Assembly (NCBI RefSeq): GCF_028368995.1
Contig: NZ_JAQNDL010000001.1
Span: 896,001 to 960,000, forward strand
Reading direction: 5' to 3'
Length of the DNA: 64,000 nucleotides
Origin: Nannocystis bainbridge
GTDB taxonomy: Bacteria; Myxococcota_A; Polyangia; Nannocystales; Nannocystaceae
The notes beneath the pieces were generated by a model. That model saw nothing but the letters and a program-made list of their open reading frames with translations. It was not told where the DNA came from and ran no database searches. Of the stretch, positions 1-63,634 are shown one piece after another. Both the position numbers and the translations under genes were made by a program. Each line of letters opens with the position of its first letter. Position 1 is the stretch's first letter.

Positions 1-1762
1 CGCGATCGACCCTGTCCGAAAGGTCCTGTGCTGGGGCTCCAACGACCGCGGCGAGTCCGGCCCCGGCGCGGCGCCGATCGTGCGCCCGGCCGCGGTGCCC
101 GGCGCCCCTACCGCCGACGCGATCGCCGTCGGCGAGCCGTTCGCCTGCGCCCTCGCCGACGGCCTCGTCACCTGCTGGGGCCGCGATCCGCTGCGCGACG
201 GCGCCGGCACCGAACCCGCCGAAGTGCCCGCGCTCGCCGGCGCCGTCAGCCTCGCGGCCGGCGTCGACCACCTGTGCGCCGTCGGCCGCGACGATCGCCT
301 CCTGTGCATCGGGACAGGTTCCGAAGGACAGCTCGGTGACGGCCGCCCGCCGGCGATCGAGCCGCCGCGCAGCCCCCACGGGGTCGCCATGGCCCGCCCG
401 CGGCTCGCCGAGGTCGCCGACGTCACTGACGTCGCCGCCGCCGCCGTCGGCGATCAATTCGCCTGCGCGCTCCGGCGCTCCGGCGGCGTCGCCTGCTGGG
501 GCGGCAATCGCGACGGCCAGCTCGGCGACGGCGGCCAGATCCCCCGCGATCGTCCTTCGCCTGTGCGTGACCTCGACGACGCCGTCGAGCTCGTCGCCGG
601 CACCGCGCACGCCTGCGCCCGGCGCACCCGCGGCGACCTGGTGTGCTGGGGCTACAACGAATTCGCCCAGGCTGGCGAGCGCACCACCGCCGCTGCTGCC
701 CCCACCGTGCACGCCCTCGCCGCCGCCGGCCTCGCCGTCGGCGACTCCCACGCCTGCGCCTGGAACGCCGACGGCGCCTGGTGCTGGGGCGACGGGACCT
801 ACGGTCAGCTCGGCGACGGCGCCCGCGACCGCCGCGACGTCCCGACCGCGGTGCCCGGCCTCGGCCGCGTGCGCGAGCTGGTCGTCGGCGCGCGTCACAC
901 CTGTGCTTTGGAACATGGCGGAACAGTCATGTGCTGGGGCGACGACAGCTTCGGCCAGCTGGCCGGTCGCGGCGTCCCGCGGGGCGAGCCGATCGACGAA
1001 CATCGCGGACCGCTGCCGCTGCCGCCGATCGAGGCCCGCAGTCGACCGCGCGCGGGCCCCGTGGCCGGGCTCGCGGACATCGTCGACCTCGCCGTCCACG
1101 AGCACCGCACCTGCGCCCTGCGGCGGGACGGCGCGGTGGTGTGCTGGCACGCCTTCGCCGACCAGCCGCTGGACCACGCGCGCACGATCGCCGGCGCCGT
1201 CGAGATCGCCGTCGGCGCCGCGCACGCATGCACGCGCGACACGACCGGCCGCGTCCGCTGTTGGGGCACCAACCACAGCGGTCGCCTCGGCGACGGCACC
1301 ACCGAGTCCCGCGACGCCGACGTCGCCGTCCGCGGGCTCGACGACGCCGTCGCGCTCGCGGCCGGTCGCCTCCACACCTGCGCCTTGCGGCGCGGCGGCG
1401 ACGTCGTGTGCTGGGGCGACGGTCTGATGGGTCAGCTCGGCGACGGCACGCGGGCAGGTCGCCCGACCCCGACCCGCGTCGCCGAGCTCGGTCGCGTGCG
1501 CGCGATCGCGGCGGGCGAGGACGCCACCTGTTCGATCGGACAGGCGCACGATATCCACTGCTGGGGCGACGGCGCGGCCGCGGGCCGTCGCTTCACGCCC
1601 CAGCGCGTCGACCTCGGCCCCGCATCGCTGCTCGCCGTCGGCGCGCAGACTGCGTGCGCCGGCGAGGGCGAGCGCGTCGTGTGTTGGGGCCAGGCTCTCC
1701 CGCCACCGATCACGCGCACGTGGGACGTCGTCACCACACCGCGCGTGATCGCGCTGCCGTGA
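1..1762 (+). CDS. RCC1-repeat beta-propeller protein (5' end outside window)
   Basis: Many repeats of the type G..H.CA...G.V.CWG.N..GQLGDG. The frame stays open back to position 2 (AIDPVRKVLCWGSNDRG), so the gene starts before the window. Confidence 0.9.
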   Translation, partial: AIDPVRKVLCWGSNDRGESGPGAAPIVRPAAVPGAPTADAIAVGEPFACALADGLVTCWGRDPLRDGAGTEPAEVPALAGAVSLAAGVDHLCAVGRDDRLLCIGTGSEGQLGDGRPPAIEPPRSPHGVAMARPRLAEVADVTDVAAAAVGDQFACALRRSGGVACWGGNRDGQLGDGGQIPRDRPSPVRDLDDAVELVAGTAHACARRTRGDLVCWGYNEFAQAGERTTAAAAPTVHALAAAGLAVGDSHACAWNADGAWCWGDGTYGQLGDGARDRRDVPTAVPGLGRVRELVVGARHTCALEHGGTVMCWGDDSFGQLAGRGVPRGEPIDEHRGPLPLPPIEARSRPRAGPVAGLADIVDLAVHEHRTCALRRDGAVVCWHAFADQPLDHARTIAGAVEIAVGAAHACTRDTTGRVRCWGTNHSGRLGDGTTESRDADVAVRGLDDAVALAAGRLHTCALRRGGDVVCWGDGLMGQLGDGTRAGRPTPTRVAELGRVRAIAAGEDATCSIGQAHDIHCWGDGAAAGRRFTPQRVDLGPASLLAVGAQTACAGEGERVVCWGQALPPPITRTWDVVTTPRVIALP

Positions 1763-1877
1763 GCGCGACGTCGCTGCGGCGCCGACGCGGCGCCGCACCG
1801 GCGCTCGCGCAGCTTGAAAGCCGAAGCGTCGCCGGGCGATAGTCGTGATCGGCTCGACTCTTCGCGCGGTGAAAATT

Positions 1878-3311
1878 ATGGCACGCAAAACTTCTCTCGT
1901 ATGGATGACTTCGCTCGGCCTCGTCGTGGGTTGCGGTGACGACGGCGACGCGACGTCGCAGACCGGCGCCGCCTCCCAGGGCACCATGTCGACTCTGGTG
2001 ACCACGGTCGACACGGTCGCCACCATGGACGGCACCGAATCCGCCACTGGCACCCCGCCGACCACCACCGAGGGCACCATGGGCGCCACCAGCGACAGCT
2101 CGGGCGTGCCGACCTCGACCAGCGAGAGCACCTCGACCGGCATGGTCACGGCGACCATGGGCAGCACCGAGACCGTCACCGACACGCTGGCGACCGACCC
2201 GTCCGAGACGGCGACCTCGAGCACCAGCGACAGCGACAGCGACACGAGCACCACCGTCGACACCACCTCGACGACCTCGACCACCGACACCACGACCACG
2301 ACCACCGGCGACCCGGGCACCACCACCGAGGACACGCCCTGCAACGAGATGCAGGTGACGCTGACCCCGGTCGTGCCGAACGTCATGCTCGTGCTCGACA
2401 AGTCCGGCTCGATGCTGTCGCTGTGGGACCACGACGCCAACGCCAACACCCCGACCGTGAGCCGCTGGTACAGCCTCTACGCCGTCGTCGACCAGGTGCT
2501 CACCAACTTCAACGCCAAGTTCAACTTCGGCATGAACCTGTTCCCCAACAAGCAGGCGGTCGACACCTACGTCGTCGGCGCCTGTCCGGTGAACGGCAAC
2601 GTCGAGGTCCCGGTCGCGCCGTTCAACAAGAACCCGATCCTCAACGCCCTGCCGGCGCAGAACAACAACACCATCAAGGGCGGCACCCCGGCCCAGGCCG
2701 GCGTCCTGGCCGCGCTGACCCACCTCAAGACCCTCGACCCGATGGTCCCGCGGGCGATCATGCTCATCACCGACGGCGCCGCCAACTGCACCACTGGTCT
2801 GCAGCCCCCGCCGCTGTTCGAGAACTACGACCAATCGCTGCACACCCTGGTCGGCAACGCCTGGACGCAGGACACCATCCCGACCTACGTCATCGGCATC
2901 GCCATCGCCAACTCGGTCTCGCCGGTGCAGATGGACGGCAGCCCCGACAGCACCAACCCGTACGTCAAGCTCAACGAGCTGGCGACCCAGGGCGGCACCG
3001 CCAAGCCCGGGCCCGAGAAGTTCTACAGCGCCGACAACCAGGTCGAGCTGCAGGCCGCGCTCAACGCCATCGTCACCGACGCCCAGAGCTGCGTGATCGC
3101 CCTCAACGACGAGCCCGGGTTCCCGCAGTTCACCAAGGTCAAGATCGGCGACGTCGAGGTGCCGAAGATCAATAACTGCGCCAACGAGAACGGCTGGAAG
3201 TACACCGACCCCGCGCCGCCGTACGTCGCCATCGAGCTGTGCGGCACCGCCTGCAACTCGCTCAAGCAGACCGGCGAGGCCGGCGTCGAGTACTACTGCA
3301 AGCCGGCCTGA
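1878..3311 (+). CDS. vWA-domain lipoprotein with Thr/Ser-rich stalk
   Basis: Lipobox LVVGC-GDD; about 140-aa T/S linker; MIDAS motif VLDKSGSM; GGTP and ITDG motifs; C-terminal GWKY..IELCGTAC. Confidence 0.85.
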   Translation: MARKTSLVWMTSLGLVVGCGDDGDATSQTGAASQGTMSTLVTTVDTVATMDGTESATGTPPTTTEGTMGATSDSSGVPTSTSESTSTGMVTATMGSTETVTDTLATDPSETATSSTSDSDSDTSTTVDTTSTTSTTDTTTTTTGDPGTTTEDTPCNEMQVTLTPVVPNVMLVLDKSGSMLSLWDHDANANTPTVSRWYSLYAVVDQVLTNFNAKFNFGMNLFPNKQAVDTYVVGACPVNGNVEVPVAPFNKNPILNALPAQNNNTIKGGTPAQAGVLAALTHLKTLDPMVPRAIMLITDGAANCTTGLQPPPLFENYDQSLHTLVGNAWTQDTIPTYVIGIAIANSVSPVQMDGSPDSTNPYVKLNELATQGGTAKPGPEKFYSADNQVELQAALNAIVTDAQSCVIALNDEPGFPQFTKVKIGDVEVPKINNCANENGWKYTDPAPPYVAIELCGTACNSLKQTGEAGVEYYCKPA

Positions 3312-3351
3312 TGGGCTCGGTGCATTCGCCCGATCGCCAGCGGCGGTCGGT

Positions 3352-3564
3352 GCGGCCATTCGCGGGGGCGCTCGTCGATCGCGGGCGCCCCGGTCGGCGC
3401 GGCCATTGGCGCGAGGCGCTCGTCGAATGCGGAGCGCCCCTGTCGGCGCGGCCATTGGCGTGAGCGCCCCTATCGGCGCACGAGGACGCCAGCCGGCGGG
3501 CCGGACGTGCGGGGCTGCGCGCCGCATTGCGCGGCCCCGGCTGCGCGCCGCATTGCGCGGTCCA
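3352..3564. repeat. Imperfect intergenic tandem repeats
   Basis: Units starting GCGGCCATT at 3352, 3399 and 3448 (47-49 bp period, third unit shortened), then a 26-bp near-perfect direct repeat GGCTGCGCGCCGCATTGCGCGG.. at 3513 and 3539. Confidence 0.75.
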
Positions 3565-3648
3565 GGCGAGCGGACGCAGCTCCCGAGCGAGGTGCTCGCG
3601 CGCGCGGCATGATTGCTGAGTAGCGCGGCCCCTGGTAGGGTGGCTGAA

Positions 3649-6675: not shown

Positions 6676-8916
6676 TCAACCGCCGAGCGCGATCGTCAGC
6701 GCGTGGCGCACCGGCGCGCCGGCGAACTGCAGCGATGTCACTGCCTCGCGGATGCAGCGGTCGAGCGGGTGCCGCTCGTCGACCGAGACGTGCTGGACCT
6801 CGAGCAGGCGCGTCGGCCCGCCGACCTCGAGCGACAGCACCAGCCGCCTCGGCGCCCCCGGACACGCGCGCAGGCGCGGCGCCAGGGCCTCGACCGCGGC
6901 CACCACCTCGGCCCGCGTCGGCCCCGGTTTCGGCGTCACGGCCGGCGACGGGGCGACCGCCGGCGGCGCGGCGCTGGTCGGCGGGTCCGGGCTCGCCGGC
7001 GGCGTCGAACCTGTCCACAAGGACATGGCGAAGAAGCCAGCCACGGCGAGCGCCGCCGCCCCGAGCCCCAGCCCCCAGCCCAGGCGGGCGCCGCCGGCTC
7101 GCCTCGCGGGTGTCCTCGAGGACATGTCCCTCCAGGCAGCCGCGGACGCGGCCACCGGTGCGGCCGCGCGCGGCCGCGAGCCCGTCGCCGCCGCCCCGGG
7201 CGCCCGCTCGCCGCGATCGCTGTGGAGGCTGCGCAGCGCGTCGCGCTCGGCGCGGAGCAGCTCGAGCAGGCCCGTCATCGAGCCGACCCGCTGCTCGGGG
7301 TCCTGGGCCAGGATGTCCTGGAAGTCCGCCGCCAGGAACGTGTCCTCGAGCTGCGGCGCGGCGACGACCACGTGCTCGCGCAGGCGCTCGGCGCCCTCGC
7401 CGGGCTCGGCCGCCAGCAGCTCGCGGATCACCGCGTTGGGCATCTGCGCCCCCGTGATCAGCATGAACAGCACCGCGCCGAGCGAGTAGACGTCGCTGCG
7501 CTCCGACTTGGCGCCGCCGGTGAACAGCTCGGGCGCGGCGAAGGCCGGGTGGCCGTACGCGCGGCCGTCGTCGCCGCGGTGGCGGGGCGTCGGCGCGTAG
7601 CGCTGGTCGGTCGCGGCGTAGAACGCGTCGAGGAAGCGGCACTCGCTGAGGTCGATGATGCGCGGCCGCGGCGGCAGGCTGCGCTCGAGCATCAGGTTGG
7701 TGAAGCTGATGTCGCCGTGGAGGATGCCGCGCGCGTGCGCGTCGTGCAGCGCCTCGGCCAGCTCGATCACCAGCTCGACCGCCGCCAACGGGTCCATCGG
7801 CCCGCGCTGGATCGTGCGCGCCAGCGGCTCGCCGTCGATCAGCTCCTCGACCAGGTACCACGAGCCGTCGTCGTTGTAGTCGCACTCGTAGATCCGCGGG
7901 AAGGCGCGATGGCTCAGCTTGTCGAGCGCCATCGCCTCGCGGCACAGATCGGCCAGCACCGGGGTGCGGGCCAGCGCGCGCGGCAAGATCTTGACCGCGA
8001 CGTCGCGCCCGAGGATGTGGTGATGCGCGCGCCAGGTCTGCCCGCACTTGCCCTGCCCGAGCAGCGTGCGCAGCTCGAGCCGGCGCGCGTACAGCCGCGG
8101 CGGCGCCGTGGCGCTGCAGCGGGTGTCGCCGGCGTCGCTGCAGCCCGGCTGTTCGAGCGGCGCCGGCGTCAGGTCCGGCGCCAGCGGCCACACCTGCGGC
8201 TCGGGCAGCAGCACCGGCTGCGTCGCCGCCAGCTTGTGCGGCCACACCTCCATGCCCGCGGCCAGCCAGGCCGCGCGCAGCTCGTCGGCGCGCAGCTGCG
8301 GGTGACCCTCGACGTCGGCCGCGAGACCGAGCACGCGGCGCAGCGGCTCGGGCACCGGCTCGGCCGGATCGTCGCGGTCCATCAGCGCCTTGAGCGTGCG
8401 CCCGAGCTGGGCCAGATCGGCGCGCGACGAGCGGGCCCCGCTCGCCTCGTCCGCATCGGTCTGCGGCGCCGTCAGCAGGCGCGCCACGCCGGCGTCGCTC
8501 CAGCGGATGTTGCGGGCCGTGACCGCCCCGTGGGCGAGCCCGTGCTCGTGCAGGCACATCAGCGCCTCGGCGATCTGCAGCCCGACCTGCCACGACGTGT
8601 CGATCGCCAGCGGCGCCTGCGTCCACCGCTGCGCCAGCGACACGCCGCCCTCGTCCTCGCGCACGAAGTACGGGTGACCGTCGCCGCCGACCCCGTGATC
8701 GACGACCGGGGCGATGTACGCGTGGCGCAGCGCCGCCAGCAGCTTGGCCTCGCGCCCGAACCGCTCGGCCGCCGCGGCCCCGAGCGCGTGCTGCAGCGAC
8801 ACCACCTGCACCCGCGTCCGCTCGCGCTCGTCGTGCGCCACGTACACGCTGCGCCCCGGCTCCTCGTCGATCCGCTCGACCAGGCGGAACCGCGGCGAAT
8901 CGGGCGCGACGGACAT
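6676..8916 (-). CDS. Membrane Ser/Thr protein kinase with tandem pseudokinase + kinase domains
   Basis: Domain 1 has RFGREAKLL but lacks VAVK and HRD. Domain 2 has GQGKCG, VAVKIL, HGDISFTN, APE and SDVYSLG. A TM helix, Pro-rich linker and small Cys-pair C-terminal domain follow. Confidence 0.85.
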   Translation of the reverse strand: MSVAPDSPRFRLVERIDEEPGRSVYVAHDERERTRVQVVSLQHALGAAAAERFGREAKLLAALRHAYIAPVVDHGVGGDGHPYFVREDEGGVSLAQRWTQAPLAIDTSWQVGLQIAEALMCLHEHGLAHGAVTARNIRWSDAGVARLLTAPQTDADEASGARSSRADLAQLGRTLKALMDRDDPAEPVPEPLRRVLGLAADVEGHPQLRADELRAAWLAAGMEVWPHKLAATQPVLLPEPQVWPLAPDLTPAPLEQPGCSDAGDTRCSATAPPRLYARRLELRTLLGQGKCGQTWRAHHHILGRDVAVKILPRALARTPVLADLCREAMALDKLSHRAFPRIYECDYNDDGSWYLVEELIDGEPLARTIQRGPMDPLAAVELVIELAEALHDAHARGILHGDISFTNLMLERSLPPRPRIIDLSECRFLDAFYAATDQRYAPTPRHRGDDGRAYGHPAFAAPELFTGGAKSERSDVYSLGAVLFMLITGAQMPNAVIRELLAAEPGEGAERLREHVVVAAPQLEDTFLAADFQDILAQDPEQRVGSMTGLLELLRAERDALRSLHSDRGERAPGAAATGSRPRAAAPVAASAAAWRDMSSRTPARRAGGARLGWGLGLGAAALAVAGFFAMSLWTGSTPPASPDPPTSAAPPAVAPSPAVTPKPGPTRAEVVAAVEALAPRLRACPGAPRRLVLSLEVGGPTRLLEVQHVSVDERHPLDRCIREAVTSLQFAGAPVRHALTIALGG

Positions 8917-9020: not shown

Positions 9021-9977
9021 ATGAATCCTTGCCTGTGCATCGTCCTGGCCGCCCAGATCGCCGCAGGCCCGGCCCCCACGGCGTCGTCGCCTTCGTTTGG
9101 CCAGCTCGAGCGGCGCATGCAAGAGCTCGTCGAACAGGAGAGGTTCGAAGAGCTTGCGCGCGACGGCGAGTCGGCGTTCGCGCGGGTCGACCTGGAGCCG
9201 TGGCAGCGCCGCGAGCTCGCCTTCTACGCGCTGCGCGGCTACCACCGGGTGTTCGCCGCCACCGGTCAGCCCGCGGGTCTGTGCCGGGCTCGCAATTTGT
9301 TGCGTCGCGTCGAGCGAGAGGTCGGCCTCGGCGAGGACGCGGCGATCGCCGCCCGCCTGCGCGACGTCACCGAGACCGACCTCGCCAGGCAGGGCCCCAA
9401 GGATCCCTGCGGCAAGCCGCGACCTGCTGCCGCCAGCGCCCCGCCGACGACGCCGGCCCAGCTGTTGCCGGTGCAGCGCAAGCCGGCCCCCCCGCCCGCG
9501 GTCGACGACGGCCAGCCGCCGCTGCTCGCCGTCTCGCGGACAAAACCCGCCAGCGCGCCCGCGACTGCGCCCACGCGGCCGACCCCCGATGTGCCGCCGG
9601 CCCAGCCCGACCCGGCCCCGAGCCCGCGCAACCGGATCCTCGCCGGCAGCCTGCTGCTGGTCGCCGGCCTCGGCCTCGGCGCCGGCACGGCGGTGATGCT
9701 GCTGCGCCGCAGCGAGGCCAACGGCGAGATCGTCGAGATCGGCGAGACCGTGTCCGCCCAGAATCGATGGCCCACCGACGCTGAGCTCGCGCGCGCCAAC
9801 CACCTCGCCGACGTCTACCGCGACCTCACGCCCGCGGCCGGCGTCACCGGGGCGGTGGCCAGCATCGCGGCCGTCACTGGCGTGGTGCTGCTGGCCGTCC
9901 CGCAGCGCCGACGCGCCACCGCCCGCGTGTCGGCGAGCCCGTGGTCGGCGATGCTGACCATCACCGGCCGGTTCTGA
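9021..9977 (+). CDS. Hypothetical exported/membrane protein, divergent from the kinase
   Basis: Signal-like N-terminus, helical domain, Pro-rich linker, two hydrophobic segments, C-terminal ITGRF. Confidence 0.7.
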   Translation: MNPCLCIVLAAQIAAGPAPTASSPSFGQLERRMQELVEQERFEELARDGESAFARVDLEPWQRRELAFYALRGYHRVFAATGQPAGLCRARNLLRRVEREVGLGEDAAIAARLRDVTETDLARQGPKDPCGKPRPAAASAPPTTPAQLLPVQRKPAPPPAVDDGQPPLLAVSRTKPASAPATAPTRPTPDVPPAQPDPAPSPRNRILAGSLLLVAGLGLGAGTAVMLLRRSEANGEIVEIGETVSAQNRWPTDAELARANHLADVYRDLTPAAGVTGAVASIAAVTGVVLLAVPQRRRATARVSASPWSAMLTITGRF

Positions 9978-10434
9978 AGCCGCGCCGGCGCGGCGAATGG
10001 CATGAGTCGATCCGCCGCGCCTCGTGACATTGGCGACACGACGTTGCAGATCCAAGGGACATGTCCCTTCGGACAGCATGAGCGCCCCCCGCGCGAATCG
10101 CCCCTGCGGCCGCTCGCCCGCGCGCGCCGGTGACCCCCGCGTGTCCCCAGGATCCCCCGTCGGAGCATTTCCGCGCCGCGCGAAATCATGACACGCGCGG
10201 CCGCGCACCTCTGCGCGAGATGTCGATAGCGCGGCCTGCCACGAGTCCGGCGGCGCGACCCGCCGCGCGGGCCCGACATTGACACCGCGCGGTCAATCGC
10301 CGGAGCACCGCCAAGCGGCGTCGAACACGGGTCTGCCGCGCGATGGACCGCCGACGAACTCGTGTGCGCCCTCGAAGTCACGCGCTCGTCGGCCCGCGAA
10401 CTCGCGAGGCTCGGCTACCCTGTTGTTCGCGGAG

Positions 10435-12102: not shown

Positions 12103-12154
12103 AGCGGGCCCGCGATCGGACCTGTCCCTCGGGACAGGGATCCGCGAGCGCCGC

Positions 12155-13231
12155 TCACTGCGGGATGAAGGCCGAGCAGGCCTGGCTGATCCGGTCGGTC
12201 GCCACGTCGAACGCGGGCCGGTAGTCCGTCTCGTCGTTGTCGGCGATGTGCCAGTACGGGAAGTAGTATTTGACCAGATCGCACACCGTGTCCCACGGGT
12301 TGCAGTCCGGCTTTTGAATGCTGAACATCACCACCGAATCTGGGTCGCCGTGTTTGGCGCCGGTAATGGCATCGGCCCACTGCTTCGGCGTGCCCTCCGA
12401 GTCGGTGTCGGGCGTGTTCGAGATGAACGTGACCATCAGCAGCGCGTCGTCGCGGAGGAAGCCCGCGTTGCAGCCGCCGGGCTCGTTGAGCGCCGGCGAC
12501 ACCGCCGCCGTCACCGCCTCGCCGAGCTCGTCGTCGCCGCTGAGGCCGATCTGGGCCAGACACGCGAAGGTCCCCTGCAAGTCGGGCTGCTCGCGGGTGA
12601 GGTAGCGGCGCCCGCCGACGACCCCGCAGCTCTCATTGGTCGCCGCGTCGCCGGCGGGGAAGACCGTGCCGGCGCCCATCGTCGCGTCGCAGGCCGAGGC
12701 CTCGGCGACCGCGTCGCACGGATAACCCGGGTACGGGCACGCCTGGCAGGCGGCGTTGCACGCGGCGCTGCCCCACGTCTCGTCGCCGTCGACGACCATG
12801 ATGTGATAGTCGAAGTCGGCGAACTTGCTCTCGATGGTGGCGATGAAGTGCGGGAACGCGTCGATGAGCCGCGCCTGCATGTTCTCCATGTAGCCGAGGC
12901 GCGAGATCACGAACAGGAAATCGATCTTGCCGCGGCAGCCGACCGGGTGCGGATCGCCGAGGTCGGGCATCCCGAGGTCCTGCAGCGGCGTGGTCGTCGA
13001 AACCTCGCCGGTGGTGGTGCCCGTCGAGCTGTCCTCGGGGACAGGCTCTCCGGTGGTCGTCGAGGTGGTGCTCGTCGAGAGCTCCGGCACCTCGCCCGTC
13101 GACGCCGGGGCGGTCATCGCCGGCGGGACGGCGAACGACGACGCGGCCGGATCGGGGCCCTCGCAGGCCGCCGTCAGCAGCAGGCTCGCCAGGGCCAGCC
13201 GAGCGGGGCTGCGCCGGCGCTCCGCGGACAT
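12155..13231 (-). CDS. Lipoprotein with degenerate vWA-like domain
   Basis: Lipobox LTAAC; T-rich linker; GCRGKIDFLFVIS; GFLRDDALLMVTFIS. The start ATG lies inside GGACATGTCC. Confidence 0.75.
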   Translation of the reverse strand: MSAERRRSPARLALASLLLTAACEGPDPAASSFAVPPAMTAPASTGEVPELSTSTTSTTTGEPVPEDSSTGTTTGEVSTTTPLQDLGMPDLGDPHPVGCRGKIDFLFVISRLGYMENMQARLIDAFPHFIATIESKFADFDYHIMVVDGDETWGSAACNAACQACPYPGYPCDAVAEASACDATMGAGTVFPAGDAATNESCGVVGGRRYLTREQPDLQGTFACLAQIGLSGDDELGEAVTAAVSPALNEPGGCNAGFLRDDALLMVTFISNTPDTDSEGTPKQWADAITGAKHGDPDSVVMFSIQKPDCNPWDTVCDLVKYYFPYWHIADNDETDYRPAFDVATDRISQACSAFIPQ

Positions 13232-14093
13232 GTCCGCAAGGACAGCCGAAGACCCTCCCCCGTCGGCGGTGAGCGCGGCGGCGGGCAGTTCCAGTGGCAA
13301 TACGGTAGGGTTTGGGCTCTCGCTGGCCGCCGGCGCGGCCACGACTGCACTCATTCCCCGCACGTCCCCAGCTTACCCCGACCGGGCGCAACCGCGCTGC
13401 GCGGAAGCGTGAGGTTCGAGGCTGCACATCGGCGCAGGGCCGCGCCTCAACAGTCCTTCGAGACATGTCCCGAAGTCTCAATCGTGACGATGTTCTCGCC
13501 GCCGAACCGTCGCCAGCCGCCGTTCCGACGGCGAGACGACCCATTGCGGCGCCGCGGCCCCACGCCCGAGGTTCGGGCCCTGGATCCACGAATCGGCAGC
13601 GGCGATCGGATCGCCTCCGCATCAAGGATTTAATAGTGCTGCACGCGGCGGAGAAGCGCGGCGCCCCGGGATCGTGCGCCGGAGCCGAACGGCCGCGGCA
13701 CCGCCTGTCCCGAGGGCCAGGTGAGAATCGCCGGAGCGTCGACCCCCGCGCTCGCGCCACTCCGACCAACATCATTCAGGCCCTCGCTCGCCGGCCGGCG
13801 ATTCGCTCCTCTTGATCCCAAGAGGCCGCCTCTGCCGGACCGTGGCCAGCCGGACCTGCCGACTGCGCGATTTCACCCATCTTGCCGAGACCGGCGAGCT
13901 CCGCATCCCGCGCACTCCTGGCAAGGCTTCCGGGCCGACTCTGGAGCTCACCGACGCCCGGAGACGCCCCGCGGACCTTCGCTCGCCCCGATTGTCCCTC
14001 GTAGCCCCCGATCGTTGGGCTCCGGGCTTCCTCGATGGGTGGCAGGCGGATCCCTGGACGGGCCAGCCCGCGACATGATAGTTTCGCCAGGTT

Positions 14094-15152: not shown

Positions 15153-15157
15153 CGCTG

Positions 15158-15249
15158 CGACATGTCCCCCGGGACATGTCGACTCATTGCATGGACATGT
15201 CCTCGAGGACATGTCCTTTTGGCGCGCGAATAAACCGTCCCGAAGGACA
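15158..15249. repeat. TGTCC-N4-GGACA cluster
   Basis: Perfect copies at 15163 and 15198, near copy at 15236; lies between convergent genes. Confidence 0.85.
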
Positions 15250-15254
15250 GGCGC

Positions 15255-16574: not shown

Positions 16575-16849
16575 GGCCTCAGGGTATCACGAGGCGGCGG
16601 CCGGCCGCCTGGATCGGGCGGACCGCCGTCGTCGACGTGCTCGGGCCGCTGCTCCTTCTTGGCGACGATCACGTGCTGGGTCGAGGGCGCCAGCATCTGC
16701 TGCAGCTCGGCCAGGGCGTTGCCGGCCCCCGTGGTCGAGGGCTTGCGGACCCGATAATAGATGTACCCGCGGCGCTCGAGCGCCAGCAGCAGGCGGTCGG
16801 CCACGAACAGCCCGACGACCACGACGACGACGGTGAGCGGCCACGACAC
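16571..16849 (-). CDS. Small membrane-anchored protein (DUF6191-like), overlapping the rSAM start
   Basis: N-terminal TM; DRLLLALERRGYIYYR; C-terminal DDGGPP. GTGA stop/start overlap at 16571-16574. Confidence 0.65.
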   Translation of the reverse strand: MSWPLTVVVVVVGLFVADRLLLALERRGYIYYRVRKPSTTGAGNALAELQQMLAPSTQHVIVAKKEQRPEHVDDGGPPDPGGRPPPRDTLRP

Positions 16850-16984
16850 GCAGCGATCCTATCGCGGGTCCTCCGCCGATCTGACACCGCCCGTCGGGAC
16901 CGTGACGCCGCGAACGACCGGCGCCCGCTCCGCGAGCCGTCGGTGCTCGGCGCGCCCGCCTCCATCAGCGGCGAGCGCGGCGGG

Positions 16985-19857: not shown

Positions 19858-19870
19858 CGGCCCGCCGCAT

Positions 19871-19949
19871 GGGCATGTCCGAAGGGACATGCCCATCAGA
19901 AATGTTCAAAGGGACATGCTCCTTCGAGCATGTCCCTTCGCGCAGGTCC
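19871..19949. repeat. 14-bp-phased TGTCC-N4-GGACA array
   Basis: CATG-like cores at 19874, 19888, 19901, 19915, 19929 and 19943; between convergent genes. Confidence 0.85.
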
Positions 19950-19959
19950 GGCCGGCCGC

Positions 19960-26441: not shown

Positions 26442-26490
26442 AGATATGTCCATGAGGACATGTCGCTAAAAACATGTCGAAAAAGACAGA
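26442..26490. repeat. 14-bp-phased TGTCC-N4-GGACA array
   Basis: Cores at 26445, 26459, 26473 and 26487; perfect copy at 26447. Confidence 0.75.
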
Positions 26491-26627: not shown

Positions 26628-27593
26628 TCACTGCGGGATGCCGCAGACGCCGACATTCTCGAAGCCTGGAGGGGCCTGACCCATCTCGTACCACGCCAGG
26701 CACTCGGCGTTTTGGCCGGTGCACACGCCGGCCTCGGTCATGTCACAGAACGCGATGCAGCAGCCGATCGCCATCGGGTCGCACTCGGCCGCGATCTCCG
26801 GGTTGGCGCACGTGAAGCCCTTGTCGCACGCGTTGATGTACTCGCACGCGTCGAACTCCTGGCCCTCTTCGCCCGAGGCGTCGAGCACACACAGGAACGC
26901 GTCCGGGTTCTGCGGGTTGGGGATGCACAGGTTGTTGCCCGGGCAGTCCTGCAGCAGCGGATCGCACGACGGCAGGCACAGCGTCAGCACGCCGTCGTTG
27001 GAGATCAGGCACGAGGTCATCGGCTGGGCGCAGTCGGGCGCGTCGGGCGAGCCGACGCAGAGGGCCACGCACGTCCCGACGCCTTCGGTGACGTCCCAGC
27101 ACATGTTGCCCTTGTCGCAGTTGTCGATGCCGCTGACGCCGCTGCCCTCGACGGTGCACGGGTCGCCGACCTGGCCGGCGTTCTCCATCACCGGCGTGCA
27201 CTTGAGCGACTCCCACGCGTTGTCGCCGTCACCCGAGTACGGCATGCACTTCTGTCCTTCGGGACAGTCCTGCGTCCACTGATCGCACTCCTTGGCCCCG
27301 CCGCCGCCGTCGGGCGGGGTGATGAACGAGCCGTCGGTGGTGCTCTCGCCTTCGGTGGTCTCGGTCGGATCGCCCGGCGTCGTCGTCGAAGTCGGGTTCG
27401 TCGTGGTCCCGCCGGGCCCGCCCGTCGAGGTGTTGCCCTCGGACCCGCCCGAGCTCGTCTCGTCGTCGGTGGTGTTGTTGTTGTTGGTGGTCGGGGTGTT
27501 CGTCGCGTTGCCCTTGCCGCCGTCGTCGCCGCACGCCGACAGGAGCACACTCACGAGCGCACACGGTATCCATCGCATCGTCATCACTGGCAT
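26628..27593 (-). CDS. Cys-rich lipoprotein (paralog of 14094-15152)
   Basis: GGAG-rich RBS; lipobox LLSAC-GDD; T/N stalk; QDCPEGQKC...LCLPSCDPL...ACEYINAC...ENVGVC. Confidence 0.85.
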   Translation of the reverse strand: MPVMTMRWIPCALVSVLLSACGDDGGKGNATNTPTTNNNNTTDDETSSGGSEGNTSTGGPGGTTTNPTSTTTPGDPTETTEGESTTDGSFITPPDGGGGAKECDQWTQDCPEGQKCMPYSGDGDNAWESLKCTPVMENAGQVGDPCTVEGSGVSGIDNCDKGNMCWDVTEGVGTCVALCVGSPDAPDCAQPMTSCLISNDGVLTLCLPSCDPLLQDCPGNNLCIPNPQNPDAFLCVLDASGEEGQEFDACEYINACDKGFTCANPEIAAECDPMAIGCCIAFCDMTEAGVCTGQNAECLAWYEMGQAPPGFENVGVCGIPQ

Positions 27594-28237: not shown

Positions 28238-29041
28238 ATGCGGAAAGCCCGGCGATGCGGCGCGCTCGTGTTGGCAGGCCTCCTCGCCCTGCCGGCGCCG
28301 GCGCGCGCGGCCGACCTGCGGCCCGTCGAAGCCCCGGTCGAGGTCCCGGTGCCGGAGCGGCCCGACGCGCAGCCTGGCGCGAAGGACAGGCCCCTGAGCG
28401 CGGTGCCGGTGCCGGATCAACCTGTCTCTTCGGACATGTCTCCGAGCACAGGTCCCGAAGCACAGGTCCCCGAGGCCAGGGTCGAAGGGCCAGCTCCGCC
28501 GCCGCCGCCGTCGCTGGCCCCCGGGGCCGGGCTCGGCGAGCCCGAAGACGCGATCACCGTGGCGGTCGGGCTCGGCCCGACAGCGCCGGGGACGAAGCCC
28601 GAGGTCGCCCTGGTCGACGCGCTGGAGCGCGCCGTGCGGTCGTCCGCGGCCCCCAGGACCACGGTCCGCCGGCTGCGCGCCGGGGTCGGCGAAGGCAAGC
28701 TCGTGTGCCGCGAGCGCCGCGACGATCTGGTGATCCTCGTCGAGTACCTCGCCGATCGCCCCGACCCGGTGCTGCTGCCGCACGACTGCCGGCTCGACCG
28801 CGCCCTGGGCGTGCGCGGGGCCGACGCCGCCAATCACCCGGAGCTGGTGGCGACGCTGTGGGGCGAGCACGAGGCGCTGGTCCGCGACGGGGCGAAGGAG
28901 CGGCGGCGGACCCGGTTGGGTCCGAAGGTGAGGACGGGTCTCATCGCCGGCGGGGCGATCCTGGCCGTCGGCCTGGCGATCGGTCTCGTGGTCGCGGCCA
29001 GCTTGCGCCGTGAGATCGTCGTGCTCACAGTCAGTCCATGA
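28238..29041 (+). CDS. Hypothetical exported membrane-anchored protein
   Basis: Signal peptide, Pro-rich linker containing a motif array, C-terminal TM. ATGA overlap with the next gene. Confidence 0.7.
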   Translation: MRKARRCGALVLAGLLALPAPARAADLRPVEAPVEVPVPERPDAQPGAKDRPLSAVPVPDQPVSSDMSPSTGPEAQVPEARVEGPAPPPPPSLAPGAGLGEPEDAITVAVGLGPTAPGTKPEVALVDALERAVRSSAAPRTTVRRLRAGVGEGKLVCRERRDDLVILVEYLADRPDPVLLPHDCRLDRALGVRGADAANHPELVATLWGEHEALVRDGAKERRRTRLGPKVRTGLIAGGAILAVGLAIGLVVAASLRREIVVLTVSP

Positions 29042-41540: not shown

Positions 41541-41703
41541 GGCGGTCGCCGCCGCATTGTGCGGCCAGATCTCGCTCGAACGCCAATTCGTCGCCGACCG
41601 GGCCAGGCGCGCGCCTCTCGAGGCTTCGCGCGCCGGATCGCCCGCCGTCAGTCCGCGCGCCGCGCGAACCGCCGCCGGCTTTCACATGTCCCGAAGGACA
41701 GGT

Positions 41704-45152: not shown

Positions 45153-46631
45153 ATGGCAACCGTGGTCACACTTCCCCGCCTCAGCGACACGATGGAAGAG
45201 GGCGTGATCGCCAAGTGGCGCATCAAGGTCGGCGACAAGGTCAAACGCGGCCAGGTCATCGCCGACATCGAGACCGACAAGGCGACGATGGAGTTCGAGT
45301 CCTTCGACGCCGGCACCGTCCTCAAGCTGGTCGCCCCCGAGGGCGAGGCGCTGCCCGTCGGCGCCACGATCGCCGTGTTCGGCCAGCCGGGCGAGAACCC
45401 CGACGCCGTCGACGGCGGCGCGAAGCCCAAGCCCGCCGACAAGCCCGCGACCGACAAGCCCGCGACCGACAAGCCGGCGACCGACAAGCCCGCCGACGAA
45501 GCGTCGGAGTCCGACGCCGACGAGGAGGCCGACGAGAAGCCGGCCAAGGCCTCGGCCAAGCCGGTCGCGCCCAAGCCCCAGCCCGAGAGCGTGGCCGAGG
45601 TGAAGCACGCCGAGGCCGTCAACGAGGCCTCGGCCGCCGGCGGCGATTCACCTGCCCCGAAGGCCACGTCCCAGGGGACAGGTCCCGAAGGACAGGCCGA
45701 TCGCGGCCGGATCCCCGCCTCGCCGCTGGCCCGCCGCCTGGCCCGCGAGCACGACCTCGAGCTGGGCCAGATCCAGGGCTCCGGCCCGCACGGCCGGATC
45801 GTCAAGGCCGACGTCGAGCAGGCGATCGCCAAGGGCCCGACCCGCGCGGCCGCGGCGACCGGTACTTCGGCACATGTCCCTTCGGCCAGCCAGCCGGCCG
45901 GCAGCCCCGCGGCCGACGTCGACGAGCACGGGCGGCCGTACATCAGCCGGCCCGACCGCTCGGTCAAGCTGTCGCAGATGCGCAAGGCGATCGCCAAGCG
46001 CATGGGCCAGGCGAAGCGGGAGATCCCGCATATCTACCTGACGATGCCGATCGTCATGGACCGGGCGGTCGCGCTGCGGGCCGAGTTCAACCTCTCGGTC
46101 GACGGCACCAAGGCCAGCCTCAACGACCTGGTGATCCTCGCGGCCGCCCGCGCGCTGCGCAAGCACCCGCGGGTCAACGCCCACTTCACCGACAACGGCA
46201 TCGTCGAGCGCGGCGATGTCCACGTCGGCGTGGCGGTCGCGCTCGACGACGGCCTCATCGTCCCGCCGGTCCGCTTCGCCGACCAGAAGACGCTCAAGCA
46301 GGTCTCGATCGACGTCCGCGACCTCGGCACCCGCGCCAAGGAGAAGACGCTGAAGCCGGAGGAGATGACCGGCAGCACCTTCACGGTGTCGAACCTCGGC
46401 ATGTTCGGCATCGAGGAGTTCTGCGCGATCGTCAACCCGGGCGAGGCCGCGATCCTGGCCGTCGGCGCGGTCCAGGACGAGGCCGTGGTCGAGGACGGCA
46501 AGATCGTCGCCCGCAAGCGCATGCGCGTGACGCTGTGCAGCGACCACCGCGTGTTCGACGGCGCCGAGTCGGCCAAGTACCTGCAGACCCTGCGCAAGCT
46601 GCTCGAGAGCCCGCTCTCGCTGCTGACCTGA
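45153..46631 (+). CDS. pdhC: Dihydrolipoamide acetyltransferase (E2)
   Basis: Lipoyl ETDKA; E3-binding ASPLARRLA..GSGPHGRI; catalytic DHRVFDG. Confidence 0.95.
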   Translation: MATVVTLPRLSDTMEEGVIAKWRIKVGDKVKRGQVIADIETDKATMEFESFDAGTVLKLVAPEGEALPVGATIAVFGQPGENPDAVDGGAKPKPADKPATDKPATDKPATDKPADEASESDADEEADEKPAKASAKPVAPKPQPESVAEVKHAEAVNEASAAGGDSPAPKATSQGTGPEGQADRGRIPASPLARRLAREHDLELGQIQGSGPHGRIVKADVEQAIAKGPTRAAAATGTSAHVPSASQPAGSPAADVDEHGRPYISRPDRSVKLSQMRKAIAKRMGQAKREIPHIYLTMPIVMDRAVALRAEFNLSVDGTKASLNDLVILAAARALRKHPRVNAHFTDNGIVERGDVHVGVAVALDDGLIVPPVRFADQKTLKQVSIDVRDLGTRAKEKTLKPEEMTGSTFTVSNLGMFGIEEFCAIVNPGEAAILAVGAVQDEAVVEDGKIVARKRMRVTLCSDHRVFDGAESAKYLQTLRKLLESPLSLLT

Positions 46632-48681: not shown

Positions 48682-48987
48682 TCGGCGACGTGCGCTTGCC
48701 TGCGGCTCGCAGCCCGCGAGCGAGCGTCGACGACCCGTGACTCCAGGGGGATGTCGCTGCGATCGGTCGATCACAGCGACGTCGGCGCCGGCCGTGGCCG
48801 CGCACCGGACCCGAACGCCGCCCGAAAGTGCCACCGGCGGATCGACGCGCGCCGCCGCCGGCGCCCCCGCCCAGCGCCGCACAATCGCCGCGCCCCGCCT
48901 CCGCAAAGGTCGAACGTGGCGCCCGAGGCGCTGAGAGAGCCCCTGCTGGCGTCTCGATCGCGGCCTCGCTACTGTCGTGGCATACCC

Positions 48988-49188
48988 ATGGGCGATGTGA
49001 TCAATCTGAGTCGTTATCGCAAGGCCAAAGCCCGCGCCGAGAAGGAGCAGAAGGCCGAGGCCAACCGAGTCCGCCACGGACGCACGCGGACCGAGAAGCA
49101 GGCCGTGCAGGTCGAGCTCGAGCGCCAGACCGCCGAACTCGACGGCAAACGCCTCGACAGCGCCGACGACGGGAAACAAAGCCCCTGA
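48988..49188 (+). CDS. DUF4169-like small protein
   Basis: MGDVINLSRYRKAKAR..A.ANR..HGRT. Confidence 0.8.
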   Translation: MGDVINLSRYRKAKARAEKEQKAEANRVRHGRTRTEKQAVQVELERQTAELDGKRLDSADDGKQSP

Positions 49189-49418
49189 CCGTCCGGACAT
49201 GTCCTGCGGGACAGGGTCTCCGTCGCCCGCGAGCCGCGGGACCTGTGACTGTTCGGACATGTCCCCAAAGACACCATCCCCCGTTCGGGGCCTATGACTC
49301 TTCGGACATGTCCTCCGGGCCATATCTGAATTCTCCGGCTCGCAGGACTCGCCACCCGGTCTCGGGCGCAGCCCCGCGAGCCGCCGCGCATGACCGCTGC
49401 GACATGTCCTGAAGGCCA
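49186..49418. repeat. Four 28-bp doublets TGACY-N4-GGACA-TGTCC-N4-(G/A)G(A/C)CA with spacers
   Basis: Copies start at 49186, 49246, 49295 and 49391. Confidence 0.8.
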
Positions 49419-58244: not shown

Positions 58245-58324
58245 TCGCATGGCCGTTGCGACATGCCCATGACGACATGTCCATCACGACATGTCCTCAT
58301 GCGCATGCCCCGAAGGACATGTCC
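58245..58324. repeat. 14-bp-phased motif array (6 units)
   Basis: CATG at 58248, 58262, 58276, 58290, 58304 and 58318. Confidence 0.9.
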
Positions 58325-59455
58325 TCAAGCACTAGCCGGCGGGTGGGCCCCGAGCTCGAGCGTGCGCGCCAGCTCGGGCCGCCGCACCTTCCAGATCCAC
58401 CCGTCGTAGAGGAAATGCAGCCACGACGTCGCGGTGTAATAGACCAGGTAGACATCGGTGCGGCGCTGCCCCTGGATCAGCCAGAACACCAGCAGCAGCC
58501 CCCCGGCGAGGGCCGGCACCGCCAGGCGGGCGTCGCCCAGCACCCGCGCCGCCGCCCCGCGCCGCTCGCCGCGGCCGTACTTCTTCGTCCCGAAGTGGTG
58601 CACGAACGCCATGTACTCGACCGCGTGGGCGGTCCCGAAGCACAGGTAGCCGACCACCGGCCCGTGGATCAGGAACACCGCGAACAGCAGCAGCGTCGAC
58701 GCCATCATCGCCAGCCGCGGCGCGCGTTGCCCGGGCGTCGCCGGGGCCCGCAGCTCGTGCGCCAGCCAGCGCAGCAGCACCCACGCGAACGCCCCGACCA
58801 CCGCCAGCAGCAGCGCCCACGCCCACCACGCCCCGGCCAACGGCGCCAGGAGCCGCCCGAGCTTGCGCGCATTGACGTGCCCGCCCAGCAGCTGCGGCCG
58901 CAGCAGCGGCAGCGCCACCGCCACGCACGCCGTCGCCAGCCAGATCAGCGCCCGGTCGCGCCGCGCCTGCTCCGGCCGCTCCGTCCCGCCGCCGAGCTTG
59001 CCCGCGTAGATGCGCAACATCCCGTAGCGCTGCTGCAGCGTGTGCCAGATGTTCCACGCCCCGGTCACGAACAGCGCGATCTGCCACGGCGACAGCTTGA
59101 TGCCCGCCACCGTCGCCGGCGCCAGCCCCGACGTCGCCCGCGCCAGGGCCACGATCGCCACGATCAGCGTCGGCGCCAGCCAGTACGCGCGGGCCCGCTG
59201 CGTGAACACGTCGCGGTCGCCGTACACCACCACGAAGGTGTAGTGGCGATGCACATAGCTGATCGCCAGCGCCGCCAGCACCGCCAGCGCCGTCGCCTCC
59301 TCGAGCTGCGGCTTCGCCAGCGGCGCCCCGCCGAACGCCTGCGCCCCGAGCCCGAGCCCGATCACCAGCCAGAGGTAAAAAGGCAGCCAGCCGAACGCCA
59401 GCGCGGCCACGTCCCACGCCGGCCCGATCATCCACGTCGCGCGGGCTGGCGGCAC
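58325..59455 (-). CDS. Polytopic membrane protein with His motifs
   Basis: About 9 TM segments; HRHYT; WHTLQQRYG; HAVEY; HFLYDGWIWK. Confidence 0.75.
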   Translation of the reverse strand: MPPARATWMIGPAWDVAALAFGWLPFYLWLVIGLGLGAQAFGGAPLAKPQLEEATALAVLAALAISYVHRHYTFVVVYGDRDVFTQRARAYWLAPTLIVAIVALARATSGLAPATVAGIKLSPWQIALFVTGAWNIWHTLQQRYGMLRIYAGKLGGGTERPEQARRDRALIWLATACVAVALPLLRPQLLGGHVNARKLGRLLAPLAGAWWAWALLLAVVGAFAWVLLRWLAHELRAPATPGQRAPRLAMMASTLLLFAVFLIHGPVVGYLCFGTAHAVEYMAFVHHFGTKKYGRGERRGAAARVLGDARLAVPALAGGLLLVFWLIQGQRRTDVYLVYYTATSWLHFLYDGWIWKVRRPELARTLELGAHPPASA

Positions 59456-60453: not shown

Positions 60454-60476
60454 AAGCCTACGAAGGAAGCCAACCA

Positions 60477-60908: not shown

Positions 60909-60909
60909 C

Positions 60910-62306: not shown

Positions 62307-62663
62307 TTCTCCGCTTGCCCCGCAAGATCGCTGCGATCCGGCCCACGGCCGCGGAGCGCTGCGTGCCCACGGCCGCGCGTCCGCTCCCGCACCGCGCTTC
62401 GCGTGCGTCCCCCGCGATTCGCGCCCGAGCTCCACGTCCTGTCCCTTCGGACAGCCCGTCGATGCGTGCTGGCACCTGCCCGGAGCTCCAGGCCGCTGGC
62501 GTCGGCCCTCGCGCCAGCGCGCGCTGTGGCCCCTGCGCAGGCGGAGCGCCGCGTCGCCGCCGGGCGGTGACGGGACGTGTCGGCATGGGGGACGCGGGAC
62601 CTCGCGGCGTCCGGTCGCGGCTGATTGAGCGACCGACGCTCGCGCGGTAAGGTCACCGCCGAC

Positions 62664-63503
62664 GTGGCGAGGCAAGCAGCAGCGCGGAGTTGGTGGTCGC
62701 GCGCGATCGTGCGGGGACTGTTCGCGCTGACGGCCGGGTGCACGGGCGGATCGGAGCCCGCCGGCAGCGGCACGACGTCCGGCGGCACCGCGACGGGCGA
62801 GGCCTCGACCCTCACGACCGGCGGCACGACGCCGACCACCTCCTCGACCACCGGCGAGCCGCCGCCGCCGCCGACCGCCTGCGCCGAGCCGACCACCCTC
62901 TCTGCCGCGCCGCGCACCATCGCCGAGGCCGTCGCCTTCATCAACGAGCTGCCGCAGCCGCTCACGCTCGATTGCTTCCTCGAACGGCTCGAGCGGCCGC
63001 TGGCGATCGCCGCGACCAAGAGCGTGATCAGCCTGCAGCCGGCGGAGGGCGCGAGCAGCCCGCGGCTGTTCCTGTTCTTCGGCGAGTTCGTCATGTCGGT
63101 CGCGGTCGACGGCCACGGCTTCCAGCTGCTCGAGTTCGGCGAGCCCGTCGGGCAGTGGCGATCGATCAAGGCCGAGGTCTCCTTCCCGCTCACCGACATC
63201 ATGGGCATCGAGGCCCCGTTCACCCGCGTCCTCCGCGACCCGGGCGGCGGCGGCACCTCCTGCGGCGTGTGCCACGGCAGCGAGGCGCCCGCGCCCGAGT
63301 ACCCGCAGGCCTTCGCCTCCGACGCCCTGCGGTTCCCCGACTTCGAGCTGGTCTCGTTCGCCGACCTGCGCGGCGAGTACGAGCGCTGCGATCCCGCCGC
63401 CCAGCCCGAGCGCTGCGCCCGGCTCACGGCCCTGTTCGGCCACGGCGAGGTCGAGGCGGCCGCGTTCCCCGAGGCCATGCCGACGATCTACGACTACGAG
63501 TGA
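62664..63503 (+). CDS. Lipoprotein with single CxxCH heme motif (start uncertain)
   Basis: Lipobox LTAGC; T-rich stalk; SPRLFLF; LLEFGE; SCGVCHG. Confidence 0.7.
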   Translation: MARQAAARSWWSRAIVRGLFALTAGCTGGSEPAGSGTTSGGTATGEASTLTTGGTTPTTSSTTGEPPPPPTACAEPTTLSAAPRTIAEAVAFINELPQPLTLDCFLERLERPLAIAATKSVISLQPAEGASSPRLFLFFGEFVMSVAVDGHGFQLLEFGEPVGQWRSIKAEVSFPLTDIMGIEAPFTRVLRDPGGGGTSCGVCHGSEAPAPEYPQAFASDALRFPDFELVSFADLRGEYERCDPAAQPERCARLTALFGHGEVEAAAFPEAMPTIYDYE

Positions 63504-63578
63504 CCGCGGCGACTTCGAGGGCCCGACGGCCGGGCCTCACGCGATCGGGAGCGGGCCGACCGCCCCCGTTGCGCTCAG

Positions 63579-63634
63579 AGACATGTCTCCTACGACATGT
63601 CCCGTGCGACATGCCCGAGCGAGCATGTCCGAAG
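63579..63634. repeat. 14-bp-phased motif array (4 units)
   Basis: CATG at 63582, 63596, 63610 and 63624. Confidence 0.85.

Follow-up and report, generated by a model that had tools for sequence, protein, structure and literature searches.

Hyperabundant short palindromes of the HIP1 kind have gone unexplained for about thirty years. The DNA uptake sequences of Neisseria (DUS) and the uptake signal sequences of Haemophilus (USS) are lineage-specific, asymmetric 9- to 12-mers that occur about once per few kilobases in open reading frames (ORFs) and spacers, and inverted pairs of them often form hairpins past genes. HIP1 itself is described (PMC5861425) as a short perfect palindrome of unknown mechanism that is over-represented hundreds-fold in ORFs and spacers, conserved between genomes, and lineage specific. 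Repetitive extragenic palindromic (REP) elements, according to two further papers (PMC3733652 and PMC2817692), are 20 to 40 bp long, carry a GTAG or CGTC tag, and come with a RAYT gene. The published operators of CviR and CsuR, CTGNCCNNNNGGNCAG and CTGTCCGATAGGACAG, have a free third base (PMC12114271). Here we describe a 14-bp palindrome, TGTCC-N4-GGACA, that recurs throughout a 64-kb stretch of Nannocystis bainbridge DNA (the window; C1:896001-960000, where C1 is contig NZ_JAQNDL010000001.1 of assembly GCF_028368995.1, with 11,048,555 bases in five contigs and 71 to 72% G+C). The word belongs to the known kind of hyperabundant short palindromes, to which HIP1 and REP also belong, and it joins features of both in a novel combination, without the defining partners of either. 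Searches of open-access papers and bioRxiv, supplements being outside the coverage, yielded no description of the motif for this group. Nor did we find that it matches a REP or operator family already described and assigned to a protein of this organism, in line with a preliminary description of the window that had not recognized the motif as a described one.

The window, with a G+C content of 0.68 to 0.74, contains exactly 14 perfect copies, all at the positions reported in the preliminary description. A further 34 copies have one mismatch, including all ten listed there (1529, 6642, 14517, 24389, 30024, 32119, 34412, 45681, 46624, and 58306). None of 100 dinucleotide-preserving shuffles reached 14 perfect copies (maximum, 1), and their mean of 0.05 per window equals the expectation of about 0.05 that had been estimated earlier. 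For the 48 copies with no more than one mismatch, the expected number was 1.53 and the largest shuffle gave 6. Hyperabundance by chance is very unlikely. The proposal that the signal is genome-wide was borne out, with 1,987 perfect copies distributed across all five contigs of the 11.05-Mb genome. The arm spacing is strict: compared with 1,987 copies at N4, there are 16 at N3 and 5 at N5, and the spacings from N0 to N24 other than N4 gave 0 to 19 copies (median, 6), with 0, 2, and 11 at the phase-matched spacings N1, N7, and N10. The only exception is N18, with 379, which represents two abutting units. Across all 1,024 five-base arms and spacings of 0 to 12, TGTCC-N4-GGACA was the most over-represented palindrome in the genome, and the next-ranked palindromes were shifted readings of the same element. 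One-mismatch copies numbered 4,258, compared with 137 to 267 at control spacings, and two-mismatch copies numbered 7,530, compared with 2,615 to 4,617. The family has about 6,000 clear members and perhaps about 10,000 in all.

The constraint on the word is position specific. In one-mismatch copies, with both strand readings summed, arm positions 1 to 5 were altered 432, 50, 1,889, 498, and 1,389 times, respectively; G2/C13 is nearly invariant and T3/A12 is nearly free. Transitions of G2 to A were found 25 + 13 times, compared with 407 + 461 transitions of C5 to T, an imbalance indicating neither neutral decay nor uniform stem pairing. The position profile past stop codons (102, 12, 667, 176, and 472) was the same as that in coding sequence (CDS; 203, 20, 786, 161, and 440), which argues for one reader in both contexts. 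Outside the arms there is a weaker flank consensus, (A/G)C(A/C) to the left and its mirror image to the right; the full form CTGTCC-N4-GGACAG has 413 genomic copies, and GGACATGTCC occurs 956 times. The four central bases are very diverse with a YYRR tendency, and the commonest center accounts for 107 of the 1,987 copies. On the G-rich strand, G outnumbers C at these positions by 2,645 to 1,868, a GC skew of about 17%. This is about twice the 5 to 9% typical of 200-kb bins, as expected at nearly neutral positions, and the centers might be used to gauge mutation bias between replication strands locally.

Units also occur in phase with one another. Gaps of 14, 28, 42, 56, and 70 bp between successive copies with at most one mismatch were found in 485, 274, 165, 58, and 28 cases, respectively. 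There are 435 arrays of at least three units in 14-bp phase (maximum, eight units), 197 of them in convergent spacers, and the array junction C-A-T-G is their best-conserved part (0.92 to 0.98 per base). Most perfect copies are solitary, with 95 of the 1,987 lying in arrays of at least three units and 159 abutting a unit with at most one mismatch.

The variants were further compared with what stem pairing and duplex recognition would predict. Noncompensatory double variants occurred at 1.04 (different pairs) and 0.96 (same pair, unrestored) of the product of the singles, so that the two half-sites vary almost independently. In tandem spacers downstream of ORFs, the sense strand carried 188 G.U-type and 159 C.A-type variants, and in CDS the numbers were 356 and 409; there is no clear sense-strand preference for G.U-type variants. 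Position 3, which would be the center of a 5-bp stem, is the most expendable pair. Complementarity of the flanks was 0.536 at positions -1/+14 (0.452 expected) and 0.396 at -2/+15 (0.451 expected); the flanks are not complementary overall, and the central bases do not pair. A sequence-specific, symmetric constraint that is the same in ORFs and in spacers points to a macromolecule reading duplex DNA, and we infer that the pattern fits a dimeric protein on duplex DNA better than a hairpin.

Genes were predicted with our own ORF caller, which uses third-position G+C (GC3) and gave 7,280 non-overlapping ORFs, each with the longest possible start; it is crude, and some calls are spurious. By these calls, 1,018 copies are intergenic, 941 lie in ORFs, and 28 lie on a boundary. 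The same caller places five of the 14 perfect window copies in ORFs and nine between them, consistent with the earlier statement that coding and intergenic DNA both carry the motif. The intergenic copies fall into convergent (443), tandem (477), and divergent (97) spacers, the four spacer classes (++ and -- counted apart) covering about 0.44 to 0.52 Mb each. In a caller-free periodicity test requiring the same phase on both sides, 357 of the 1,987 copies (18%) were in clearly coding DNA, compared with 2,112 of 4,000 random positions (53%), and 996 copies (50%) were in DNA without periodicity, compared with 19% of random positions. Copy density outside strongly coding DNA is about 8-fold that within it. 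Its density peaks in the first 20 nt past a stop codon, at 3.1 to 3.4 copies per kb in convergent and 1.7 to 2.5 in tandem spacers, and drops to about 1 and 0.5, respectively, by 100 to 150 nt, part of this perhaps arising from genes that the caller missed. Divergent spacers contain 0.1 to 0.5 copies per kb. These promoter-bearing spacers are the poorest in copies, in agreement with the earlier view that the motif is not the promoter operator of one regulon. A copy starts within 60 nt past the stop codon in 573 of the 7,280 ORFs for perfect copies and in 1,530 when one mismatch is allowed. Near start codons, copies inside ORFs are only modestly enriched, with 188 of 941 lying within 150 nt of a predicted start.

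The copies inside genes are not explained by codon usage. Predicted CDS, after removal of the first 150 nt of each, amounts to 8.35 Mb and contains 789 copies, compared with a single one at the N7 spacing. Ten synonymous-codon shuffles gave 17 to 33 copies (mean, 25.9), and five codon-order shuffles gave 2 to 5. The enrichment, about 30 times the synonymous-codon shuffle, thus survives the codon-preserving comparison that had been proposed as a check. The copies are evenly spread along genes and use all frames (190, 101, and 42 of 333), encoding frame-specific peptides of the types V-P/L-x-D, L/M-S-x-G/R/W-T, and C-P-x-G-Q/H. One example is an endonuclease III homologue (C1:791528-792343) in which GGACATGTCCCGAAGGACATG is translated as GHVPKDM, a stretch that can be aligned, with no gap, to EVPRD in the endonuclease III structures PDB 1p59 and 1orn. 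Five of six closer relatives have a perfect unit at this site, and the sixth has two mismatches; counted over the genus, five of seven genomes have the unit in perfect form, and none of 21 genomes from other genera has it. In a more distant congener and the 21 other-genus genomes, the segment reads G-E/V/R/Q-V/I-P with other codons and no copy. The residue preceding the shared V-P is His here and Glu in 14 of 22 other family genomes. The gapless alignment and the codons of the relatives indicate that the word arose in place, by way of rare codons and a changed residue, and not by insertion.

Conservation between species follows the arms of the word. We used an alignment of six species covering window positions 9800 to 20300 and 37 double-unit loci syntenic with the N. 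bainbridge genome, whose matching segments are 78 to 93% identical. The 37 pairwise alignments gave 126 site observations with both directions counted, 2 of them unclassifiable. At noncoding sites (n = 67), identity was 0.63 in the arms, 0.34 in the center, and 0.43 to 0.45 in the flanks; at coding sites (n = 24), the values were 0.95, 0.82, and 0.87 to 0.89. In the own-to-other direction, the orthologous place was perfect for 9 of 10 coding, 5 of 21 edge, and 8 of 37 noncoding sites, and 15 of the 67 noncoding sites were mostly gap in the other species. Twenty-two sites were perfect in both species, and only six of these had the same center. Eighteen presence/absence cases involved indels of 15 to 132 bp with no constant ends and no target duplications, ruling out the anatomy of a mobile element. 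At one named Nannocystis locus, the alignment showed a 21-nt insertion, a multiple of three, in the N. bainbridge genome; it consists of the word with 8-bp arms and is missing from the other species.

The word is restricted to 3 of the 17 sampled genera of one family. A scan for the double unit in one genome per prokaryote species returned 78 stretches, 75 of them in records named Nannocystis, Nannocystaceae, or Myxococcales metagenome-assembled genome; the three stretches outside the group had one copy each. In a survey of 61 genomes from the 17 genera of the family, the eight genomes of Nannocystis had 333 to 2,090 perfect copies each (114 to 2,090 in all 11 genomes of a wider set). A second genus (g2, five genomes) had 87 to 169 and a third (g4, seven genomes) had 67 to 696 copies per genome. 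The other 14 genera had 0 to 20, and a reversed-pattern control gave 0 to 10. No phage with host-like density was found; a viral-contig scan for the 20-mer form gave eight stretches with a single copy each.

Our tentative reading, to which we give a little less than an even chance, is that this hyperabundant, clade-specific word is recognized by its sequence in double-stranded DNA, likeliest by a symmetric homodimeric protein of the helix-turn-helix (HTH) type. Each half-site would have the form (C/A)-T-G-n-C-C/T, and G2 and C13, 11 bp or about one helical turn apart, would meet the two recognition elements of the homodimer. Copies on native DNA would be kept by selection or by a drive using the same reader. 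Copies in ORFs would be tolerated where the protein sequence allows, and promoter-bearing spacers would exclude them. Copies are concentrated in the first 20 nt or so past stop codons, where they often lie within longer palindromes and 14-bp-phased arrays. Our guess is that binding would signal a gene end or help to structure the chromosome, whether as a protein roadblock, an insulator, or a topology site.

The closest match for such a mode of reading is the operator of the LuxR-type regulators CviR and CsuR. The operator CTGNCCNNNNGGNCAG coincides with the word found here, down to the free third base and the critical TG/CA. The CTG-N10-CAG dyad matches the CviR consensus, and the tolerance of variants here agrees with the N positions of the operator. 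As the operators are the same word, reading by an HTH dimer is physically established for one protein family. However, the CviR/CsuR operator serves promoters in a quorum-sensing regulon of small size, whereas here there are thousands of copies that avoid promoter-bearing spacers, and a LuxR-type receptor with autoinducer-binding and GerE domains was not found in this genome. The likeness would therefore be one of way of working, not of membership.

Several observations weigh against recognition by a duplex-binding dimer. The pile-up after stop codons, with convergent exceeding tandem and far exceeding divergent spacers, is the pattern of REP hairpins and is unusual for a DNA-binding factor, and the ORF calls behind it are the crude GC3 calls described above, some of them spurious. 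Symmetric (compensatory) double variants are 1.57-fold more frequent than expected (452 versus 288). Of 446 copies within 40 nt past a stop codon, 28.9% have at least three extra pairs (13.4% under a flank-shuffle null) and 12.6% have at least five (2.8% under the null); coding copies show no stem extension. RNA folding of six window copies with 3-nt flanks gives -5.9 to -14.5 kcal/mol. There are 1,127 T.G-type and 614 C.A-type variants on the G-rich strand, an excess that we read as mutational skew because the free centers show the same skew, single-strand hairpin effects being another possible cause. The aligner may have paired non-orthologous spacer copies, which would inflate arm identity. 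Searches of the genome for GerE, autoinducer-binding, and ParB_N domains did not find the reader protein: there are only 11 GerE matches in 11 Mb, none of which was singled out as the reader, and one marginal match to the autoinducer-binding domain PF03472 (23.7 bits), with no GerE match listed nearby. Separately, a predicted protein at C2:1196402-1198474 has two tandem GerE-type HTH domains at its C terminus, and one response-regulator gene has two one-mismatch copies upstream.

A rival explanation is a REP/BIME-like hairpin family, which would fold in mRNA or single-stranded DNA, stabilize or end transcripts past ORFs, and be multiplied by some enzyme. We regard this as unlikely for the family as a whole; for the after-stop subset a REP-like hairpin function is a serious rival, and both roles may coexist. 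The likeness to the REP, BIME, and REPIN-RAYT elements of proteobacteria extends to high copy number, genus specificity, location at gene 3' ends and in convergent spacers, clustering, and interspecies turnover. Here it is seen in the density peak past stop codons and the low density in divergent spacers, the number of genes with a copy close past the stop, the phased arrays, the noncoding sites that are mostly gap in other species, the extended stems of after-stop copies, and the excess of symmetric double variants. The REP comparison made in the preliminary description thus holds for the peak, the clusters, and the turnover, and the fit is only partial. No RAYT (Y1 transposase, PF01797) was matched in the genome, whereas the control was matched in 6 of 14 reference genomes. 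The end tags are likewise missing, with GTAG beside 23 of the 1,987 sites (control, 22) and CGTC beside 90 (control, 168). Unlike in REPs, conservation is limited to 10 bases (5 + 5), variation is greatest at the middle pair of the stem, and variants neither track stem pairing nor show a G.U asymmetry in the sense orientation. Conserved segments of ORFs contain hundreds of in-frame copies that formed in place, the centers are too diverse for copy-and-paste multiplication, and the indels lack fixed ends or target duplications.

A plain intrinsic terminator was considered and rejected for the word. There was no T-tract or T enrichment downstream of 158 sense-oriented after-stop copies. Within 150 nt downstream of 102 predicted tRNA genes, a copy with no more than one mismatch was found in nine cases, of which only two are perfect. 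The missing T-tract and the tRNA counts also speak against the REP-like explanation. In 20 kb there were 12 terminator-like sites where 5.4 were expected; a single motif copy is among them, with a T-rich tail, at 15250-15235(-), the lone exception and a point in favor of hairpin function. At C1:3057230-3057513, three tandem tRNA-Cys genes have a one-mismatch copy, TGGCC-N4-GGACA, between each.

A HIP1-type "self" word, read by an orphan methyltransferase or a recombination or uptake factor and made abundant by selection or biased repair, is distinctly unlikely. The resemblance to HIP1 (GCGATCGC) of cyanobacteria, as given in PMC5861425, includes palindromy, over-representation, presence in ORFs and spacers, conservation between species, and lineage specificity, and the 15- to 300-fold over-representation in and between ORFs of HIP1-type words is also found here. 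The HIP1 analogy drawn in the preliminary description stands in these respects, with ORF copies in all frames, and is otherwise incomplete. The word differs from HIP1 in its two-part form (5-N4-5) around a free center and in its host, a member of the Myxococcota, and it is much denser outside ORFs, peaks past stop codons, and forms 14-bp-phased arrays. CATG, the most conserved part of the arrays, would also suit a self word. However, the genome has no C5-methyltransferase (PF00145) and no Vsr, PF00145 is absent from six of the eight genomes of the genus, and neither family co-distributes with the motif across the 61 genomes (N6 and N4 methylases were not surveyed). A drive by cytosine methylation and very-short-patch repair is unlikely, as the genome has neither enzyme family.

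Depletion of the word in atypical DNA would also be expected of a self word. The poorest 100-kb bins have 2 to 3 copies, compared with a mean of about 18, and a lower G+C content (0.686 to 0.711), and in most copy-poor bins more DNA was rejected by the codon-bias caller. Bins with 2 to 3 copies and a G+C content of 0.686 to 0.697 lie at C1:1.1-1.3 Mb, C2:1.8-1.9 Mb, and C5:0.4-0.5 Mb, and those on C1 and C2 have many ORFs rejected by the caller. The copy-poor bins are probably foreign, horizontally acquired islands.

A chromosome-organization site of the parS, NBS, or matS kind, or a DNA uptake sequence, is very improbable. A palindromic 14-mer across the whole genome would fit the former, and the arms presumably resemble those of parS. 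However, full 200-kb bins contain 10 to 64 copies with no ori/ter gradient or exclusion zone, including around both GC-skew switches, and the genome has one ParB_N match and no extra ParB/Noc paralogue, so that the matS/NBS analogy suggested earlier is not supported. Known parS, NBS, and matS-type site sets are far smaller than the approximately 6,000 perfect and one-mismatch copies. As regards an uptake sequence, TGTCC occurs 12,351 times in all, many of these within full sites, and lone half-sites are not the enriched unit; the unit here, unlike in DUS and USS, is the dyad itself. Finally, there is next to no chance that base composition, codon usage, or a recurring protein motif produced the word as a by-product. 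Some copies in tandem peptide-like repeats within long ORFs would speak for this, but it is refuted by the dinucleotide and codon shuffles and the phase-matched spacings given above, and the encoded peptides differ by frame.

A broader picture, which we consider doubtful as a whole, concerns Nannocystis and two sister genera: a new genome-wide word system, with a dedicated dimeric reader on several thousand sites, would mark native DNA and gene ends and replace missing classical terminators or insulators, and its pressure would rewrite codons and residues of conserved enzymes. HIP1 would then have an independent counterpart in another phylum, one whose sequence logic is tractable, with a bipartite logo that looks protein-readable and a sharp preference for gene ends. 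The narrow clade boundary (3 genera with the word and 14 without) makes the question testable. In practice, the word marks the genus and could help to bin sequences and to detect foreign islands in these 11- to 13-Mb natural-product producers. Parts for insulators or terminators may be derived from it, and it may improve DNA transfer, an effect that a preprint reports for HIP1 (10.1101/2024.09.10.611283).

In the window, no Rfam family was matched. Two perfect copies, at 7012..7025 and 7111..7124, lie inside ORF 6676-8916(-), where they are read as MSLWT and DMSSRT. Some copies abut start codons, namely that at 13231 and perhaps that at 10062. The copy at 10062..10075, in a tandem spacer and preceded by GGACA, keeps its position and its loop CTTC in all six aligned species, with position-5/10 variants in three species, one of which is a symmetric double. 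An ATG at 10078, 2 nt past this copy, is in frame with ORF 10279-12102, and the gene may start there, which would place the copy directly before the start codon. Between convergent ORFs, an imperfect hairpin of about 45 nt at 12103..12150 has a perfect copy (12123-12136) at its tip; it is present only in N. bainbridge among the six aligned species, and the RNA fold of 12100-12160 has -34.5 kcal/mol (z, -3.7).

ORF 12155-13363(-) has two perfect copies. That at 13030..13043 is kept in all six aligned species with varying flanks and is read as PVPEDS, a conserved segment in a Ser/Thr-rich linker. That at 13231..13244 abuts the probable ATG start (MSAERRR..., signal-peptide-like); its arms are kept in the five species that align there, with the centers GCAA, TCGG, TCGG, TCAG, and GCGG. 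The product is lipoprotein-like, with MSAERRRSPARLALASLLLTAAC after an ATG that lies within GGACATGTCC. From this ATG, the longest-ORF start at 13363 is probably too far upstream, and the word may affect start and stop annotation.

A cluster between convergent ORFs at 15163..15249 comprises perfect copies at 15163 and 15198 and a one-mismatch copy at 15236, and its unit number varies widely among the six species. At 19876..19916, a perfect copy with 8-bp arms (-13.4 kcal/mol), 18 nt past a stop codon, is accompanied by a one-mismatch copy at 19903. The perfect copy at 26447..26460 lies in a long spacer and is followed by degenerate units with A-rich centers, and that at 27253..27266 lies 16 nt before the stop codon of ORF 26719-27282(+). 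Degenerate units in 14-bp phase form an array of four at 28423..28478 and an array of three at 45653..45694, the latter inside ORF 45153-46631(+). A perfect copy at 41687..41700 lies 3 nt past the stop codon of ORF 41704-43035(-). Past the stop codon of ORF 48751-49188(+), a cluster at 49186..49418 has a perfect copy at 49200 and one-mismatch copies at 49186, 49260, 49309, and 49405. An array of six units in 14-bp phase at 58250..58333 lies between convergent ORFs, and the RNA fold of 58245-58340 has -36.4 kcal/mol (z, -3.3). The last perfect copy, at 62440..62453, lies in a tandem spacer with the next ORF 171 nt on. Elsewhere in the genome, minisatellite-like tandem repeats at C2:2066859-2067347 and C2:1217434-1217808 have units of about 30 to 50 bp with one copy each, within very long predicted ORFs that may be either repeat proteins or frames open across noncoding arrays.

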